Below, in pieces: positions 14,300 to 24,164 of a stretch of DNA of 31,376 nt. How positions within the stretch are numbered: position 1 is the stretch's first letter; each line of letters starts with the position of its first letter. Source of the DNA: a virus; the UHGV virus genome UHGV-0241516; one strand, 5' to 3'. The notes below the pieces were generated by a model. It worked only from the letters and a program-made list of their open reading frames with translations, was not told the DNA's origin and made no database searches. Made by a program: the position numbers and the translations under genes.

Positions 14300-14986
14300 T
14301 TAGAAGTTCAGATTTTTCAGTGCATTCAGTGCAGAGCCCACATCCTCAGCGTCGCGCAGGGACAGTGCGCCATAGCCCCCGGCCATGAATGCTTTGGCCT
14401 GGGTACGGGAGAGTCCGACATCACGCAGGACTCTTTCGATTTTTTTCTGTTCGGGGATTTCCCCGCGGGCCAGTGCGTTCTTGACGTCGCTGATCCGCGC
14501 CTCGTCGTTAGACGGGAACGTCACCAGGCTGACTTCCCAGAGGTCGATTTCTTTCAGCAGAAAGGCTTCTTTGCTCCGGTCGTATTCCCAGTCTTTCAGG
14601 ACGTACCCAATAGAAAGGCCGGTTAACGAACCGGCCTTCATGTGTGCATGTGCGCGTTTTGCGAGGGGATCATCATCAATAAGCAACCGTCCCCTGACGT
14701 AAAGCCCGACATCGTCTTCCTTCATTTCGGTGTAAACACCGATGGGTTCATCCATGCGGTGCTGCCAGAGCAGCGCAGGTAACGCTTTTCTGTCACTCCA
14801 CGCCCGCAGGGAAGCAGCAAATGCCCCGGACATCACCACATCATCGTGGCTGTCCTTTACACCAAAGACGGAGCCATACCCTTCAAACTCACCGGAGTCA
14901 CTGACAGATTTCAGACTCAGCGGTACATCAAGACGTTGTTTCGTCTGCATTGGCGTTATCCTTCTGCTTACCGGCTTTACTGCCAT
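14300..14986 (-). CDS. Prohead protease, HK97 family
   Basis: 228 aa, between portal and capsid. N-terminal motif …EFEGYGSVFGVKDSHDDVV… as recalled for this family. Start uncertain; overlaps portal 3' end. Confidence 0.85.
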   Translation of the reverse strand: MAVKPVSRRITPMQTKQRLDVPLSLKSVSDSGEFEGYGSVFGVKDSHDDVVMSGAFAASLRAWSDRKALPALLWQHRMDEPIGVYTEMKEDDVGLYVRGRLLIDDDPLAKRAHAHMKAGSLTGLSIGYVLKDWEYDRSKEAFLLKEIDLWEVSLVTFPSNDEARISDVKNALARGEIPEQKKIERVLRDVGLSRTQAKAFMAGGYGALSLRDAEDVGSALNALKNLNF

Positions 14987-16169
14987 CGGAGGGTTTCGTG
15001 GTCATGTTCATCGGTGTGAGATAGACATCACCACCGGGACGCGGATTCATATCTTCCAGGTCGCGGCAGTCATTGGGAGAGTAAATTCCCCAGTTAATCC
15101 CGGTGGCGTAGGCTTCAAAACGGGACTTCATATCCCCGCGCAGTAACGCCCCGGCGTTAAATTTGGCGTAATAAACGCCCTGCTTACTTTTTCGTACCAG
15201 TCCGGTGTTGATCCGCTGTTCGATGCGGGTCAGATACGGCACCAGTGAATAGTTGATAAATCCAAGCCCCAGTTCTTCGATATTGTTGAAGGTGGCGCGA
15301 TCGGTGTTCTGCACCATGTGCAACGGTACCCGGAACAGACGACAGATTTCTTCAAGTTGAAACTTGCGGGTTTCCAGGAACTGGCTGTCCTCGGCGTTCA
15401 GCGCCATCGACTTCCAGTCCAGCCCCATCTCAAGGATCATCGGGCGGTGAGCATTGCCAAGCCCGGTGTGACGCTCCTCAAAATCTTTCTTCAGGCGCTC
15501 GTAAGCCTGATCTGACAGCGTCTGCTCTGTACGCAACACACCCGACGTCACCGCGCCATTGCTGAACAGTCTGGCCCCGTGCTCTTCGGTCGCTGCCGCC
15601 AGCGATATTGCCTCGCGGGCATAGGCGATGGGATTCAGCCCCACCAGTCCGTCCAGCGTCAGCGTGCGCACATGCCAGATATCCTCCTGGCTCAGTACAT
15701 CCGTGGAGCCATCCGGGAATGTGACCTGATAGACCGGCTCCCAGCTACTGTTAAGCTTCGGTACCACACAGCCGGGATCGACGGGCAGCAGTTCAGCCAC
15801 TTCGCCAAATGCTTTCACTTTGTAGGCGTAAAAGTTTCCCCGCAGGCACAGACAGGTGACCACCAGCTCCCAGAACTCCTGCGGCGTCATATAGCCATTG
15901 GGATGCGTGGAGATCAGCTTATGCAGACGTTCGCCAGTGGCTCTCTGCTTCAGGCTGCCGTTCAGGTGATACAGGTTGCAGGGCAACATCCCGACCGACT
16001 CCGCCAGCACCCTGACGCAGGAAAAAACCGCCGTCAGTCGCATGGCCCTCTGGCTGCTGATCTGCTTTCCGGTATAGGTGTCGTATGACAGCCCGATAGC
16101 ATCCACCAGCTCTGCTGGCGTGGTCACCGGTGCGTCACTTTTTCGTTGAAATAATCCCGAAAAGAACAC
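14928..16169 (-). CDS. Portal protein, HK97 family
   Basis: 413 aa. GTG start at 16169-16167 overlaps the upstream small-ORF stop by 1 nt. Sits between terminase and protease. Confidence 0.85.
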   Translation of the reverse strand: MFFSGLFQRKSDAPVTTPAELVDAIGLSYDTYTGKQISSQRAMRLTAVFSCVRVLAESVGMLPCNLYHLNGSLKQRATGERLHKLISTHPNGYMTPQEFWELVVTCLCLRGNFYAYKVKAFGEVAELLPVDPGCVVPKLNSSWEPVYQVTFPDGSTDVLSQEDIWHVRTLTLDGLVGLNPIAYAREAISLAAATEEHGARLFSNGAVTSGVLRTEQTLSDQAYERLKKDFEERHTGLGNAHRPMILEMGLDWKSMALNAEDSQFLETRKFQLEEICRLFRVPLHMVQNTDRATFNNIEELGLGFINYSLVPYLTRIEQRINTGLVRKSKQGVYYAKFNAGALLRGDMKSRFEAYATGINWGIYSPNDCRDLEDMNPRPGGDVYLTPMNMTTKPSDGSKAGKQKDNANADETTS

Positions 16170-16362: not shown

Positions 16363-18096
16363 TTAAAGCGAGCGGATCCCGTAGGACTCAATGTGGTCGG
16401 ACAGCGTGTCTTCTTTCTCATACAGCATGGCTCTGCCAACCGCCATAATCAGCGCAACTGCACCATCGATTTTGTTTTCCGCCTGCTCTTTGACGGGCTT
16501 CACCACATCATCGTTACCCGGAATGGTTTTGCCGACCACGTTGCCGATACACCAGGTCATGATGGGATTGCCGTCATGATGAAAGCGCCCCGATTCAATT
16601 GCCGCTTCCAGCTCTTTCATCGGGTCGGACATGTTGGTGTAGTTCTGAATGATGGTGATGGGATTCAGGTCTTCATCAGCAAGGTCATGTGACAGCCCGG
16701 TCGCCCCGAAGGGGTCGATGGGTGACTCGCTGACCGGGCTGATTTTGTTCGCTGCTTTGGCCTCTTCGAGGATGTAGCGATAATCCACCTCTGCACCATC
16801 GGTAACGGTCAGGACGCCCATTTCCACCCATTTCTGAAAGCGTTCGGCTGTCCGGCGATCTTCATTTTTCTCGACGCTGTACACCGTGTCATACGGTACC
16901 CAGAAACGCGGGGCCACACTGTAGTAATGCGTTTTACCGTCAATCTCGCGGGTATAAAGTCGCGCCATGCTGTTCATATCCAGCTTACGCGCCAGGTCAA
17001 AGGCCAGAATGCACGGCTGCCCCTCGAACTGCTCAAGGGTCAGTGATTTATCCTCGCAGCTCTGCCAGCTCACCAGGTTGAAATACGCCGAACGCGCCGA
17101 CACCCAGATATTGAGGTGTTTTGTTTTAAAGACGTTTGCCAGACGGGCGTTATTTTTCGCACGCTGCTGCTGACTTAACAAAAATTCGCGATAAACCGAC
17201 ACGCCAATATTTGGATTGGCTTTTTCCAGCACCTGCGGGTCGGTCCAGTCGTCACCTTCATCAACGGTATAGATGATCCCGAACAGTTCATCGTTGGGCA
17301 CCGAGCCGTTGAGCATCTCGATGACTTCCCGCCGCTTGTCGTAGCACGGCCCCTCAATGTTGTACCCGGCAGTAGTAATGGCCCACATCAGTGGCTGACG
17401 TCGCGCCCCCATCCCGGTAAGCATCGTGGTGTAAAGCGCATCGGTGGCGTGCTCGTGATATTCATCCACCACCGCACAGTGGGGTGATGATCCATCACCG
17501 GGGTTACCGATCAGCGGTTCAAACCGCGCGCCATCCTCCGGACGGTTCATGTTTGAGGCGTTAACCTCAATCCCGAACGCTTCCGTCAGCATGGGCGTGC
17601 GTTTACACATCAGTCGCGCCGGGCGAAAGACTTCCCACGCCTGTTTCTCTGTCGTGGCACCGGAATACACTTCCGCGCCAAACTCGTTATCACAGGCAAA
17701 ACAATACAGGGCAACACCGGCAGAGATTGCCGATTTGCCGTTCTTACGGGGGATTTCGGTATACACCTCCCGGAAGCGGCGCAGCCGGGACCCTTTATTG
17801 ACCCAGCCAAACGCACAGCAGACCACAAATAGCTGCCACGGCTCCAGCGTGATGGGCATCCTCTTGAATGCCCACTCACCCTTGGTGTGCGGCAACAGCT
17901 GAATAAATTTGGCGGCCCGTTCAGCCAGGTCCTTGTCGAAGCGGTAACGAAACGACTTACTTTTTTCCGCCATCAGGTCATCAAGATGGCGCTGGCAGGC
18001 CTGAATCACAAACTGGCAGGCCACAATCTTTCCGCGAACGACATCCCGGGCATACTGATTGGCAGCATTTACGTTGGGGTAAGATTTCCGGCTCAT
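16363..18096 (-). CDS. Terminase large subunit
   Basis: 577 aa. Size and position right after the small terminase. Overlaps TerS stop (18093-18096). Confidence 0.9.
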
Positions 18097-18587
18097 GATT
18101 CGATGATTTTCAGAAACGGGTTAGTAGCTTTCTTCTGCCCCGCCAGGCCAATCAGACGCTGGCGGCTGCTGGGGTCGAGTCCGAGCATTGCCCCCGTGCT
18201 GCTCATCTCGGACTCCTGTTCTTTTTTGGCGGTCAGCTCAGGATTTTTGACCATACCGCCCATTGCACCGGTGATGGTGTTGCCCTGTCTGGCAATATTT
18301 TTCACGGCACGTCGCCAGAACTCATAGGCCACACACCACCGCTCAAGCACCGCGAGGTCAGTCACGCACAGCAGGCCCTGACCGCAAAGTTCTTTAGTTG
18401 TCAATTGCCACATGATCGTGGCGAGAGGGAGATCTTCTTCAGCGAACCACTCCGGTGGCTCAACACCTTTGATGGGCGTAAAAACAGGTTCATCTTTATT
18501 CAGGGCTCGCTTGCCGGGGTTTCCGGCCAGCGCCTTGCGCGCCGTTGGCTTGGGGCGACGCCCGGAACGCCCCGCCGTTCCAGCCAT
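18093..18587 (-). CDS. Terminase small subunit (P27-family-like)
   Basis: ORF track starts at GTG 18596. ATG at 18587-18585 has AGGAG 8 nt upstream and is preferred. Basic N-terminus. Confidence 0.75.
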
Positions 18588-18637
18588 ATGCGGCACTCCT
18601 GGTTAAATTTCATTTTTCGCGGGTATAAAAAAACGAT

Positions 18638-18686
18638 GGGGCGGGCAGTCCGGAAGACGTCAGGTCACAGGGATTTGACCCGCCCC
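18638..18686. other. Candidate cos/terminase-recognition region: GC-rich 8-bp inverted repeat
   Basis: Read directly: GGGGCGGG (18638-18645) and CCCGCCCC (18679-18686), 33 bp apart, in the HNH-TerS intergenic gap. HK97-like cos phages place cos between the HNH and small-terminase genes. Confidence 0.35.
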
Positions 18687-18712
18687 TCCCCTCTGGCAGT
18701 GGGAACTGGTTC

Positions 18713-19063
18713 TTACTTAATCCGTTCACGGGCCGTCTTCGCCTTATGACACGGCCAGCACAGACTCTGTAGGTTACTGTCTGCATCGGTGCCGCCATGC
18801 GCTTTAGGGATGATGTGGTCAACGGTTTTCGCCTCGCGCACCACACCGGCACGCAGGCACAACTGGCACAGGCCTTTGTCACGCTTCAGCACACGCGCGC
18901 GGATAACGTCCCACTTCGAACCATAACCGCGCTGATGACGGGACTGGCCAGACTTGTATTGCTTCCAGCCTTCGCTTTTGTGGCTTTCGCAGTAGCCTGA
19001 TGGGTCAGTCGTGGTATGGCGGCAGCCGCGAACGCGGCAGGCTTTTGGGGTTCGTGGAGGCAT
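18713..19063 (-). CDS. HNH endonuclease (terminase-associated)
   Basis: 116 aa. Cys pairs (CRVRGC…C) plus HIIPKAHGGTDADSNLQSLCWPCHKAKT are the HNH signature. Directly upstream of TerS as in HK97. Confidence 0.85.
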   Translation of the reverse strand: MPPRTPKACRVRGCRHTTTDPSGYCESHKSEGWKQYKSGQSRHQRGYGSKWDVIRARVLKRDKGLCQLCLRAGVVREAKTVDHIIPKAHGGTDADSNLQSLCWPCHKAKTARERIK

Positions 19064-19190
19064 CTATTATCCCTGTAGTTTTCGTTAAATATCTAACCAT
19101 AACTGCAATCAGAAACCGCTTTAACACGGTTTGCTAAATAGACTTTTCAATCCAATGAATAAACGGCAAGTAAATACCAATCGTTCATTT

Positions 19191-19625
19191 TCATTTGAAT
19201 ACAAACTGTTCTGAAAGAATATTATGACAAATATATTTCGCCTGAATACTATTATCTCTCATTCTAATATATTCTTTGTGGGCAACAGATAAAGAACGAC
19301 AACCGCTGTTTACACGTGGGTATTTTTCCAACATATGTTCGCATATCAAAAAAGCATTATTAATAGCATTTAATTTATGGCTTAACTCTCGTAGCTCGGC
19401 CCTTTTTTCAATACGAACATTACGACTAAGAGATAAAGGTAGCTGTGATAATGCATTTGAATAATCAGCCACTGCCATTTTCAGAGCCATTTTGGCCTTC
19501 AGAGCCTCCTGTCGCCGCCAAACATTCATTGCCCAAAAACCTAATGTAACAGTTACAATTGAACCTAAAGCCGATACAGCTGACCACACAGTTCCCCAAG
19601 GCCAGTTAAGTAATGTATGCCACAT
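19191..19625 (-). CDS. Moron: membrane-anchored protein of unknown function in an AT-rich island
   Basis: ORF track start is GTG 19637; second ATG at 19625 has GGAGG 5 nt upstream. N-terminal hydrophobic helix, then a ~100-aa soluble domain. Local GC is visibly lower than the flanking phage genes. Confidence 0.6.
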   Translation of the reverse strand: MWHTLLNWPWGTVWSAVSALGSIVTVTLGFWAMNVWRRQEALKAKMALKMAVADYSNALSQLPLSLSRNVRIEKRAELRELSHKLNAINNAFLICEHMLEKYPRVNSGCRSLSVAHKEYIRMRDNSIQAKYICHNILSEQFVFK

Positions 19626-19993
19626 CATAACCTCCACTGAATGAAAAGGTTAGTTTATCGTAAGTGAACATCACTGGCACTATCTAAAGATTAGCTGCTC
19701 TACTAGTTGTACTCTCGATAATCTAAACAAAATGATACGTAATAAACCTGTTCATGACTAGCTCTACTAGACACATGTTTAATCATCTACAAACGATTTG
19801 TACAAACTTCCACTTTCATATTGGTCCAAAATGTTGGACTAATAGTTAATCACGATGCATATTTTATGTAAGCTGCTACATTACACTATAAAAACGCTGG
19901 CGTCTGAATTTAAGCCCATAAGTTTTATAAAATTATCATAATACACAGCTTTATTAGGCGCATTCGCACTGATAATGAAAAATATAACTCGAG

Positions 19994-20266
19994 CTATTTG
20001 TCTTTCGAATGCAAAATAGCGCGCCGTGATTCAATCTTTCTGATTCCAGTTTTATCAAAATTACATTGTCCCAAGGCTGACAATAGAGCAACATTCAACT
20101 CCAGACTGGTACCATACGTCAGCGGATTGGGTATAAACGGTACAGGAGTATCAGAAGTCAGGCTGGCTGGCAGTGGTGCCACCGGAGCGCTCACGTAAAC
20201 CGTTCGCGAATTTCCGCAACCGGTCAGCAGCGGCAGCAGGCACAGGACGTGAAGCACAATCATCAT
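19994..20266 (-). CDS. Rz1-like o-spanin lipoprotein (+1 frame, overlapping Rz 3' end)
   Basis: ATG ATG at 20266-20261. Signal peptide with lipobox LLTGC, Pro-rich mature part. Overlaps the last ~115 nt of Rz and extends past its stop. Confidence 0.65.
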   Translation of the reverse strand: MMIVLHVLCLLPLLTGCGNSRTVYVSAPVAPLPASLTSDTPVPFIPNPLTYGTSLELNVALLSALGQCNFDKTGIRKIESRRAILHSKDK

Positions 20267-21006: not shown

Positions 21007-21342
21007 TTACTCCTTCGAGCTACCAAACTTGTTACCGATTACTCTCATTGCAGCCCCACGAATAGCATCGACACCGATCAGCCCCACCCCACCACCAATG
21101 GCAACAGAAAGCGATTTAGGCCATCCGACATACTCAAGCGCGGATGCAAAGGTCAACGTCAGAGCGCCACATAGCAAAATCTCGAGCGTTTTTCGCTTCC
21201 AGCCACCACCACCGCCAAAATAGGCGATGCGCAAACCAGCCATAACAATCGACATAATCACTGCGCCCAGCGGCGTATCTCCACGCCACCAGCTCTGAAA
21301 CAACTCCAGCCAGTCCGGCCAGGTATTTGGGTTATGAGGCAT
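21007..21342 (-). CDS. Putative holin (three predicted TM segments)
   Basis: Chosen start ATG at 21342 has GAGGTGAGAG ~9 nt upstream. The ORF track's longer frame starts at 21438 and overlaps the methyltransferase. Directly upstream of the endolysin. Confidence 0.6.
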   Translation of the reverse strand: MPHNPNTWPDWLELFQSWWRGDTPLGAVIMSIVMAGLRIAYFGGGGGWKRKTLEILLCGALTLTFASALEYVGWPKSLSVAIGGGVGLIGVDAIRGAAMRVIGNKFGSSKE

Positions 21343-21418
21343 TTCGTCATCTCTCACCTCGCGATATTTGCGGGTGCTGTGTTGGAAATAAAAAGGCCAC
21401 GCAACGTGGCCACCAGAA

Positions 21419-22471
21419 TTATTTCCCCACCAGTTCACTTACCTCTTTCACCGTCTGATTAAACCGCTCTGACTCAAGTTCAACACCTAACGCCCGACGC
21501 CCCAGCGCCATTGCCGCTTTTATTGTGGAACCGGATCCCATAAAGAAATCAGCAACCAGATCGCCTTGTCGACTACTGGCACTGATTATTTGCCGGAGCA
21601 TATCCGCAGGCTTCTCACACGGATGTTTACCCGGGTAGAACTGAACGGGTTTATGCGTCCAGACGTCGGTATAAGGCACGGAAACTGATACGGAGAAATA
21701 GCGCCGGAGAGTTTTAAACTCATCCAGCAATTCATAATATTTGCGATTCAGTGAATCATAAGATGCCACCAGCTGGTGGTGTGGTTGTTCCAGTTGTTGT
21801 TCCTGAAACTTCTCTGCCGCTATACGGGAAAACAGTGCCTGCAACTTCCGGTAGTCAGCCTCATTCGGCAACTGCCACTGACTGGCACCAAACCAGTGGG
21901 AAACCATATTTTTCTTACCAGTGGCTTCGGCAATCTGTTTTGCCGTTATACCCAGTTCGGCACGAGCATCCCTGAAATACGATATCAGCGGTGCCATTAT
22001 GTGCTGTTTGAGTTCCCTTTCTTTTGCCGCATAGCCGTCACTTTTGCCGCGATATGGCCCCTGGTAATGTTCAGCAAACAGAACGCGCTCTGTGGCAGGA
22101 AAATATGCGCGCAGACTTTCTTTATTACACCCATTCCAACGTCCGGACGGCTTCGCCCAGATGATATGGTTAAGCACGTTGAAACGTTCACGCATCATGA
22201 TCTCAATATCAGATGCCAGGCGATGCCCACAGAACAGGTAAAGGCTTCCGGCAGGTTTCAACACCCGCCAGAACTGGGCCAGACAGTGGTCCAGCCACTT
22301 AAGGTAATCTTCGTCCCCTTTCCACTGATTGTCCCAGCCGTTGGGTTTCACCTTGAAGTAAGGCGGATCGGTAACAATCAGGTCAATGGAATCATCAGGC
22401 AGGGACTGAATAAAATGCAGGCAATCAGCGTTGATTAAATCAACACTGTTTATTTTTACAGTATTTTTCAT
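21419..22471 (-). CDS. DNA methyltransferase, beta-class (N6A or N4C), orphan
   Basis: 350 aa. DPPY (motif IV) near the N-terminus and FFMGSGST (motif I) near the C-terminus. No restriction partner seen. Confidence 0.8.
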   Translation of the reverse strand: MKNTVKINSVDLINADCLHFIQSLPDDSIDLIVTDPPYFKVKPNGWDNQWKGDEDYLKWLDHCLAQFWRVLKPAGSLYLFCGHRLASDIEIMMRERFNVLNHIIWAKPSGRWNGCNKESLRAYFPATERVLFAEHYQGPYRGKSDGYAAKERELKQHIMAPLISYFRDARAELGITAKQIAEATGKKNMVSHWFGASQWQLPNEADYRKLQALFSRIAAEKFQEQQLEQPHHQLVASYDSLNRKYYELLDEFKTLRRYFSVSVSVPYTDVWTHKPVQFYPGKHPCEKPADMLRQIISASSRQGDLVADFFMGSGSTIKAAMALGRRALGVELESERFNQTVKEVSELVGK

Positions 22472-23144: not shown

Positions 23145-24164
23145 TTGGATAAGTTTGATGAGATTCATGTAGACATTGAATCTGAGCAGCAAGCCTTCGA
23201 TTTGCTTGAAAGCTATCTTGATGGTTATGGTTTACCTGACAGTTTAAGTTTCAACGGATGGCCAAACCTTACCATCAGATTAACCGGTGAAAAATTCAAC
23301 AGATCGCTAACACCTTCAGTTATGAAGGGATTTGTTGAAATGCAAGCTCAAATCAACAAATCATATGCCCTTGCCAAGTACGGTGTCCCTGACGTCCGCA
23401 AACTGACCAAAGAAGAACTTGATGCCCTAGAAATAGAAGTTACGGTAGAACAGGGTTCTTCAATAGTAGAAATCAACATTGATGGCTTTTTAACCAAACT
23501 CACACAGGAACTTGTTGGTAAAATGAACGCAACTGAGATCATGTTTACTGTTCTCGGCGCAGCAGTCATCTGGGGCGGAGTAACAGTATTTAAACGGTTC
23601 TTGGACAACCGTAAAGATATTCGCCTTGCAGAAATTGCTAAGGATGGAGAGAAAGAACATCTCCGGACTATGCAGATCATGAGCGAGCAAGAAACTAAAC
23701 GCCTGCGGGTTATTTCAGAAATGATTGCGGAAAAACCACTTCTCGATAACATGGACCGTATGTCGTATGACGCTAAAACCCAAATGGTCAAATCCTTTGT
23801 GCGTTCAGATAACGCTCAAATTGATGGCGTTACTATTGATTCTGAAATGGCGAAAGAGTTGGTTACGAATGCTCGTAGACGTTCATCAGAAATGAGGATT
23901 GATGGTATTTACCGAATTGAAGAAGTCAATAATACTGACCCAGAGAGTTTCAAAGTTAAGGTCCGACGCGTAGATACCGACCAACGTCTAACCTGCGTAG
24001 TTCAGGATGTTTTCCTTGATGAATCCGGAAACAAAGAAGCATTGCAGCGAGCTGAGTGGGAAAGAAAGCCTGTACATTTGAGCATTAACGCAAAACACGT
24101 CGATGGTGACATTAAGTCAGCAGTAATTCTCTATGTTCGAGATGTGGAACAAAAGCCCGAGTAA
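23145..24164 (+). CDS. Moron: 339-aa protein of unknown function with a central predicted TM helix, opposite strand to the prophage
   Basis: TTG start at 23145 with GAGGA 7 nt upstream; no in-frame ATG upstream after the stop at 23127-23129. Hydrophobic IMFTVLGAAVIWGGVTVF mid-protein. Lower GC than flanks. Ends 14 bp from the convergent Q stop. Confidence 0.7.
   Translation: MDKFDEIHVDIESEQQAFDLLESYLDGYGLPDSLSFNGWPNLTIRLTGEKFNRSLTPSVMKGFVEMQAQINKSYALAKYGVPDVRKLTKEELDALEIEVTVEQGSSIVEINIDGFLTKLTQELVGKMNATEIMFTVLGAAVIWGGVTVFKRFLDNRKDIRLAEIAKDGEKEHLRTMQIMSEQETKRLRVISEMIAEKPLLDNMDRMSYDAKTQMVKSFVRSDNAQIDGVTIDSEMAKELVTNARRRSSEMRIDGIYRIEEVNNTDPESFKVKVRRVDTDQRLTCVVQDVFLDESGNKEALQRAEWERKPVHLSINAKHVDGDIKSAVILYVRDVEQKPE

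Follow-up and report, generated by a model that had tools for sequence, protein, structure and literature searches.

A probable cos site between the HNH endonuclease and terminase genes of an SfV/SfI-type prophage

Packaging genes and the gap between HNH and TerS

The window analysed here (the whole stretch of 31,376 nucleotides of UHGV virus genome UHGV-0241516, one strand, numbered from its first letter) carries an HNH endonuclease gene, the genes for the small and large terminase subunits (TerS and TerL) and a portal gene. All four are on the minus strand, with the HNH gene lying upstream-most. These genes, and the features identified in the DNA between HNH and TerS, are as follows, in the order in which they are met along the gene strand:

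18713–19063, minus: HNH endonuclease, 116 aa (PF01844, E = 2e-16; phrog_144, E = 5e-46)
18672–18691, minus: G-box GGGGAGGGGCGGG (18691–18679) followed by TCAAATC (18678–18672), columns conserved in seven lineages
18679–18686: right arm of an inverted repeat, CCCGCCCC, from the repeat search; inside the G-box
18651–18671, minus: variable spacer from the G-box to the cut site, conserved in length and not in sequence
18656–18661: GACGTC hexamer, within the variable spacer
18638–18650, minus: probable cos cleavage site (cosN equivalent), GAC (18650–18648) and the overhang TGCCCGCCCC (18647–18638), from the match to SfI run-off sequencing and the alignment with HK97
18638–18645: left arm of the inverted repeat, GGGGCGGG, from the repeat search; inside the overhang box
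18601–18637, minus: probable TerS recognition region (cosB equivalent), +1 to +37, inferred
18093–18587, minus: TerS (P27 family), 164 aa from the ATG at 18587 (PF05119 Terminase_4, E = 2e-21; phrog_83, E = 5e-60)
16363–18096, minus: TerL, 577 aa, with ATPase and nuclease domains (PF03354 and PF20441)
14928–16169, minus: portal (PF04860)

Reading the HNH translation by eye revealed an intact CxxC/CxxC zinc site and the H83/N97/H106 motif; a zinc-ribbon-like stretch (CxxxxC...CxxH) at the N-terminus precedes the HNH core. The protein is the counterpart of HK97 gp74, with 36% identity over the HNH core, and of SfV orf53, which occupies the equivalent position. TerS scores 76.4 bits on PF05119, against a Pfam gathering cut-off of 24.7, which places it in the P27 family. 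The Pfam assignments and the gene order agree with a first-pass annotation of this DNA, in which an HNH gene was placed directly upstream of TerS and TerL.

The same annotation described a gap of 116 bp between HNH and TerS. The gap does exist, but this length rests on a GTG start at 18596, an automatic call that falls inside the Shine-Dalgarno sequence AGGAG (18600–18596), itself located 8 nt upstream of an ATG at 18587. SfV orf1 is annotated from the ATG equivalent to 18587. The likely TerS start is this ATG rather than the GTG, so the gap measures 125 bp (18588–18712).

At the DNA level, positions 18000–19200 of the window are 97–98% identical to SfV, SfIV, SfII and SfI (megablast, phage records), through TerS and into TerL, and the window TerS is 99.4% identical to that of SfI and SfII. 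The gene order is also identical to that of SfV, where HNH (orf53) is followed by cos, TerS, TerL and portal. The two differ at the 3′ end and stop region of the HNH gene, and in an additional, AT-rich insert of ∼0.9 kb, holding one ORF, that separates the spanin genes from HNH in the window prophage and is lacking in SfV.

This AT-rich island (19064–20000, GC 0.31–0.43 against a window mean of 0.52) lies between the Rz/Rz1 spanin genes and HNH; in SfV, 27 nt separate the end of Rz1 from the HNH gene. The ORF of the island (19191–19637, minus, 148 aa) has a hydrophobic N-terminus and matches phrog_6169 (function unknown, E = 3e-57), with no match in Pfam or PADLOC, and looks like an accessory cargo gene (‘moron’). 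Elsewhere in the window, a 339-aa ORF on the opposite strand (23145–24164, plus) has phrog_6191 (unknown function, E = 2e-152) as its only match, and none in PADLOC. A 350-aa ORF (21419–22471, minus), whose translation I take to resemble a DNA methyltransferase, overlaps the start of a putative holin ORF (21007–21438).

The cut site and the TerS side of the gap

With high confidence, the HNH–TerS gap can be regarded as the cos site of a temperate phage of the SfV/SfI type, presumably cut by TerL with the help of HNH and with a probable TerS site downstream of the cut. Such a cos site is already known, as it was mapped experimentally in the near-identical phage SfI. There, run-off reads on virion DNA, from primers in the HNH and TerS genes, lacked 10 nt compared to the prophage, 5′-TGCCCGCCCC-3′, and SfI packaging was concluded to be of the cos type, like that of SfV (PMC3636060). 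According to the SfIV paper, the cos site is identical in SfI, SfII, SfIV and SfV (PMC3851460). In the window, TGCCCGCCCC is found on the gene strand at 18647–18638, with flanks identical to those of SfV and SfI; it is the sole match to the 10-mer within the gap, and consists of the left repeat arm (18638–18645) plus CA. This identity to the SfI cos gap, within DNA that is 97–98% identical, bears out the earlier proposal that the gap holds a terminase cleavage site. The 10-nt overhang length of an HK97-type module is likewise found by way of SfI. The prophage itself could be defective.

I also compared the locus in 80 IMG/VR prophages whose TerS is 99–100% identical to that of the window. The cut site is invariant in all of these, except for T/C at its first base; the invariance of the DNA on the TerS side is partly an ascertainment effect, since the loci were picked by TerS identity. 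At least 590 IMG/VR matches to this type of prophage were found.

A comparison of the gap with the cos sites of HK97-like phages, which the first-pass annotation had recommended, places the cuts more precisely. The numbering used in the HK97 paper (T16, C21:G, A:T 24–29, 9-bp A-tract) fits the GenBank record exactly, and it follows that the HK97 top strand is nicked at the point where the record begins and ends, and that its final 10 nt, CGCCGCCAAA, which come after GAC, form the overhang. The cut region of the window aligns base for base with these ends, in an ungapped alignment of GAC-CGCCGCCAAA-GTTTG (HK97) and GAC-TGCCCGCCCC-ATCG (window). Because of this ungapped match, +1 would correspond to 18637, with the gene strand nicked between 18638 and 18637 and the opposite strand between 18647 and 18648.

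The 10-nt ends are very probably 3′ overhangs, as judged from the HK97 alignment and the SfI run-off method. Converging run-off reads that show a gap, and not an overlap, imply that both 5′ ends are recessed, and hence that the overhangs are 3′; for the SfV group this polarity is drawn from the description of the SfI method, the paper itself being silent on it.

The deposited records of these phages begin at different points. That of SfI begins at window position 18637, which is +1, with TerS at 51–542, while those of SfV and SfIV begin at window position 18654, 7 nt upstream of the overhang, indicating that the nick was not the end chosen by every depositor. The SfV and SfI cos sites were said to differ by one 5′ base, T versus A (PMC3636060); the current SfV record, U82619.2, reads TGCCCGCCCC, as does SfI.

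Among the Pseudomonas-type relatives, one IMG/VR contig starts exactly at the predicted +1 and another at +3, which suggests that they were assembled from the ends of linear virion DNA and provides weak independent support for the nick position. Two other contigs of this type start 6–8 nt upstream of GAC instead.

Downstream of the cut, the gene strand from 18637 to 18601 reads ATCG-T7 (T7 at 18633–18627), ATACCCGCGAAAAATG (18626–18611) and GAAATTTAACC. It includes CCGCG at +16 to +20 (18622–18618), and CCGCG followed by an A-tract is present at +16 to +20 (±1 base), with flanking A/T tracts, in all five of the P27-TerS lineages. In HK97, the TerS site has been mapped to +15 to +29, the minimum for binding, and contains a C:G step beside an A-tract (HK97 TerS work). 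Arg128 of HK97 TerS reads the C21:G pair, and the A-tract gives deformability (TerS–DNA structure paper). The corresponding HK97 sequence is CCCG at +19 to +22, followed by T7. By analogy, the TerS site of the window is probably contained in 18637–18601, and especially in ATACCCGCGAAAAATG (18626–18611), with CCGCG at +16 to +20 being the probable site of recognition. The transfer of the HK97 binding mode is an analogy because the window TerS has no detectable similarity to gp1.

The G-box and the inverted repeat

In order to identify conserved elements, I examined the DNA preceding TerS in distant relatives found by tblastn (TerS identity 33–88%), as well as in HK97; consensuses were derived for four groups, each from 56–70 distinct sequences. 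The lineages included in the comparison were the window, Klebsiella phages Kp4887-1 and Kp4887-3, Moraxella Mcat28, HK97, Pseudomonas and Psychrobacter. A common layout emerged, consisting of a G-box (GGGGnGGG) with TCAAA, a variable spacer, GAC, the 10-nt overhang, a T-rich tract, a C/G step with an A-tract, the Shine-Dalgarno sequence and the TerS ATG. This layout is kept from the prophage to the Klebsiella, Pseudomonas, Moraxella and Psychrobacter phages and HK97. Counted from the T of TCAAA to the C of GAC, the separation is 31 nt in the window, Kp4887-1, Kp4887-3, Moraxella Mcat28 and HK97, and 30 nt in Pseudomonas and Psychrobacter.

In the window, the G-box and TCAAATC together span −35 to −54 from the top-strand nick, and the G-box alone about −42 to −54; it contains the right repeat arm (18679–18686). 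Its G and T/A columns are invariant in the seven-lineage alignment, and the motif occurs once in the whole 31-kb window. The G-box is conserved although the TerS families and the overhang sequences differ among the lineages. In the literature searched, no description of it or function assigned to it was found, and a search with the literal cos sequences returned only unrelated papers; work on the termini of Serratia and Variovorax phages had no bearing on the cos sequence of this family.

The layout is not universal. In Vibrio phage H2 (PGK-2017) the HNH abuts TerS, leaving no gap, and no G-box is present within 2.2 kb, which implies that cos is placed differently in this phage. Its HNH gene, annotated as ‘holin’, ends 6 nt before TerS. 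The Gram-positive P27-TerS relatives Javan93, CWou-2020b and NatCom_6392 have neither an adjacent HNH gene nor a G-box. As far as tested, the architecture is confined to HNH-bearing proteobacterial phages.

Burkholderia phage vB_RY3 was considered as a source of true ends, and rejected: a CCCGCGAAATTAAAAATTCAGGAG box is present, and the record is without the cos region. This ‘complete genome’ breaks off within a coding sequence that has the HNH motif, where the annotation shows a hypothetical protein on the other strand instead, and the record appears to have been cut within the packaging module.

One of the Klebsiella phages, Kp4887-3, has a composite cos. With HK97 it shares the left half of cos, CCCCAAATGACCGCCGCC, and an HNH that is 72% identical to gp74; the N-terminus of its TerL has an identity of only 24% to gp2 of HK97, its TerS belongs to the P27 family, and the right half of its cos has the P27-type CCGCGAAA box. 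These shared and unshared halves point to a mosaic joint at the cut site, the left half being associated with HNH and the right one with TerS. That the left half travels with the HNH allele is compatible with a specificity on the HNH side, and is explained equally well by physical linkage.

The first-pass annotation had noted GC-rich arms 33 bp apart around a GACGTC core. The arms (8 nt each, 100% complementary, separated by 33 nt) and the hexamer are indeed all present. The hexamer is not a true core: it sits 3.5 bp off the repeat centre (18662), lies in the variable spacer, and is swapped for GCGCGC, CTGACTG or CGCATC in near-identical prophages among the 80 IMG/VR loci. Nor is the repeat by itself significant. 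When the gap was shuffled 2000 times with its dinucleotides preserved, 157 of the shuffles (7.9%) contained a perfect inverted repeat of at least 8 bp with a loop of at most 60 nt. The whole window contains 57 8-mer pairs of this kind, and 6 of these have 7 or more G/C.

As a symmetric unit the repeat does not hold up either, since its arms vary independently. In the 80 IMG/VR loci, the upstream arm GGGGCGGG becomes GGGGGAGG, GGGCAGG or GGGGGAGGG-TAAATC, while the overhang arm stays (T/C)GCCCGCCCC, so that the changes are not compensated. In the seven-lineage alignment, only 58.9% of the cells of the 8-bp helix hold a standard pair; 217 of 500 shuffles equal this value, and registers slid by −2 or −3 pair better than the named helix (64–66%). 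The repeat is not the functional unit, and its arms are two separately conserved subsites of cos. Because these subsites are independent, it would be a mistake to read the conspicuous inverted repeat as a structural element.

These data bear on three other readings of the locus. Pairing of the arms would give an mRNA hairpin that, together with AUCG-U7, forms an intrinsic terminator or attenuator after HNH, or else a DNA cruciform recognised by terminase. T7 does begin 4 nt after the arms on the gene strand, and the fold of the gap RNA pairs them (−36.8 kcal/mol, z = −2.1), but the DNA fold has a z of −1.5, and both folds are marginal compared to shuffles. The loop is 33 nt long, there is no Rfam match, and a terminator scan found none in 17500–20000. 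The position of the U-tract is not conserved, with the Moraxella C-rich box being followed by A8, not T, and the HK97 T-tract lying 23 nt away. In addition, late transcription must read through to the terminase and head genes. I therefore rejected an intrinsic terminator on the scan, the loop, the U-tract position and the lack of covariation. More generally, pairing of the arms is largely refuted by the uncompensated changes from GGGGCGGG to GGGGGAGG or GGGCAGG in close relatives, and by a pairing across the seven lineages that does not exceed that of shuffles or slid registers, and I consider it very improbable.

Somewhat less improbable, while still unlikely, is that the G-box and the C-rich overhang box are inverted copies of one motif, spaced by about four helical turns and bound by the two halves of a symmetric protein assembly, for instance a dimer of TerL or HNH. 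In all lineages a G-rich box precedes a C-rich one located at the cut, their centres lie a near-constant distance of about 41 bp apart, and the window phage shows a perfect 8-bp match. Yet the G-box stays GGGGnGGG where the overhang box varies (TGCCCGCCCC, CGCCGCCAAA, CGCGCCCTCA, CGTCCCCTTG, CGCACCCTAA), its TCAAA extension has no mirrored partner at the cut, and the two boxes pair no better than in slid registers. The least credible reading, to which I attach almost no weight, is that the repeat is a chance occurrence in GC-rich intergenic DNA, with packaging specificity residing elsewhere, at another cos locus or in a headful mechanism. The frequency of equally long perfect repeats in shuffled gaps is in its favour, but the virion ends of SfI map to this exact sequence (PMC3636060), both boxes are kept at a fixed spacing across very distant phages, and the G-box motif is unique in the 31 kb. 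The reading of the gap as a cos site, with the two arms belonging to different subsites, is the one I pursue below.

Proposed packaging scheme and comparison with known systems

During lytic growth, concatemeric DNA would be cut at GAC^TGCCCGCCCC^ATCG (18650–18634, gene strand), a sequence and position taken from SfI. Staggered nicks 10 bp apart would leave 10-nt single-stranded ends, very probably 3′. By extension from HK97, the nuclease domain of TerL would make the cuts with the help of the adjacent HNH protein; HK97 gp74, the HNH protein, binds TerL, stimulates cos cleavage and is essential in vivo (PMC9410871, PMC13595911). TerS would most likely bind the T-tract/CCCGCG/A-tract region at +1 to +37 (18637–18601), on the side packaged first. 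Bound TerS may mark the site and stall the motor at the next cos; in HK97, TerS stalls the motor at cos, and the ends are 10-nt 3′ overhangs. Packaging would start at +1 and proceed through the genes for TerS, TerL and portal, towards lower window coordinates, and would end at the next cos, past the HNH gene and the G-box. In such a scheme, the left arm of the repeat is the overhang itself, and the right arm a part of the G-box, 30–31 bp upstream of the opposite-strand nick, with no hairpin or symmetric operator involved. For annotation, cos shows where the genome of this very common enterobacterial prophage physically ends and in which direction it is packaged.

The minimal HK97 TerS site (+15 to +29) does not include the G-box, which suggests that this box serves another partner or step. 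My best guess is a role in the terminal cut, for example in TerL or HNH docking, from a position like that of lambda cosQ; such a role is the most likely one because the G-box sits at the DNA end that is packaged last. It is possible, and I propose this only tentatively, that the G-box represents an unrecognised third subsite of HNH-dependent cos sites, a cosQ analogue acting as a TerL/HNH docking or measuring element that sets the second nick or the terminal cut. The conserved G-box at a fixed distance is a modest lead, and the sole mildly novel point of this analysis. If truly functional, it would offer a defined DNA element to test in the HK97 in vitro packaging system, and would bear on the way in which the second nick, 10 bp away, is made and on the contribution of HNH.

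Across its ends, the HK97 record has a matching arrangement, with HNH (gp74), cos, TerS (gp1) and TerL (gp2). Common to both are the 10-nt overhang after GAC, the G-box and TCAAATC 31 nt upstream, and an A/T tract beside a C:G step about 15–30 bp downstream, which in HK97 is the TerS site. TerL is 26% identical to HK97 gp2 over 462 aa (E = 3e-29), both having PF03354 and PF20441. In contrast, BLASTP detected no similarity between TerS and HK97 gp1, the former belonging to PF05119 and the latter to no Pfam family. The overhangs also differ (TGCCCGCCCC in the window, CGCCGCCAAA in HK97), as do the boxes on the TerS side (CCCGCG and A5 at +15 in the window, CCCG and T7 at +19 in HK97), and the G-box and overhang box, perfectly complementary over 8 bp in the window, are not so in HK97. 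The initial description of the locus as an HK97-type packaging module is thus upheld by the gene order and the PF03354/PF20441 domains of TerL, but does not extend to TerS, which is of the P27 family and dissimilar to gp1.

A more distant likeness is seen in the herpesvirus pac1 and pac2 elements, where G-rich tracts flank T-rich elements, CGCGGCG lies by a T-rich stretch, and the distance between the motifs and the point of cleavage is fixed (PMC13595911). Their composition resembles that of the window G-box, CCGCC overhang, T-tract and CCGCG. The likeness is one of composition and logic only; the enzymes and the termini differ.

The cos site of phage lambda is tripartite, with cosQ upstream of the nick on the end packaged last, cosN at the nick, and cosB, bound by TerS, on the end packaged first. 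Lambda has 12-nt 5′ overhangs and no HNH protein, and uses gpNu1 R-sites and IHF; a similarity in sequence to the window cos is not to be expected. The lambda cos and the window cos would be alike in their tripartite layout.
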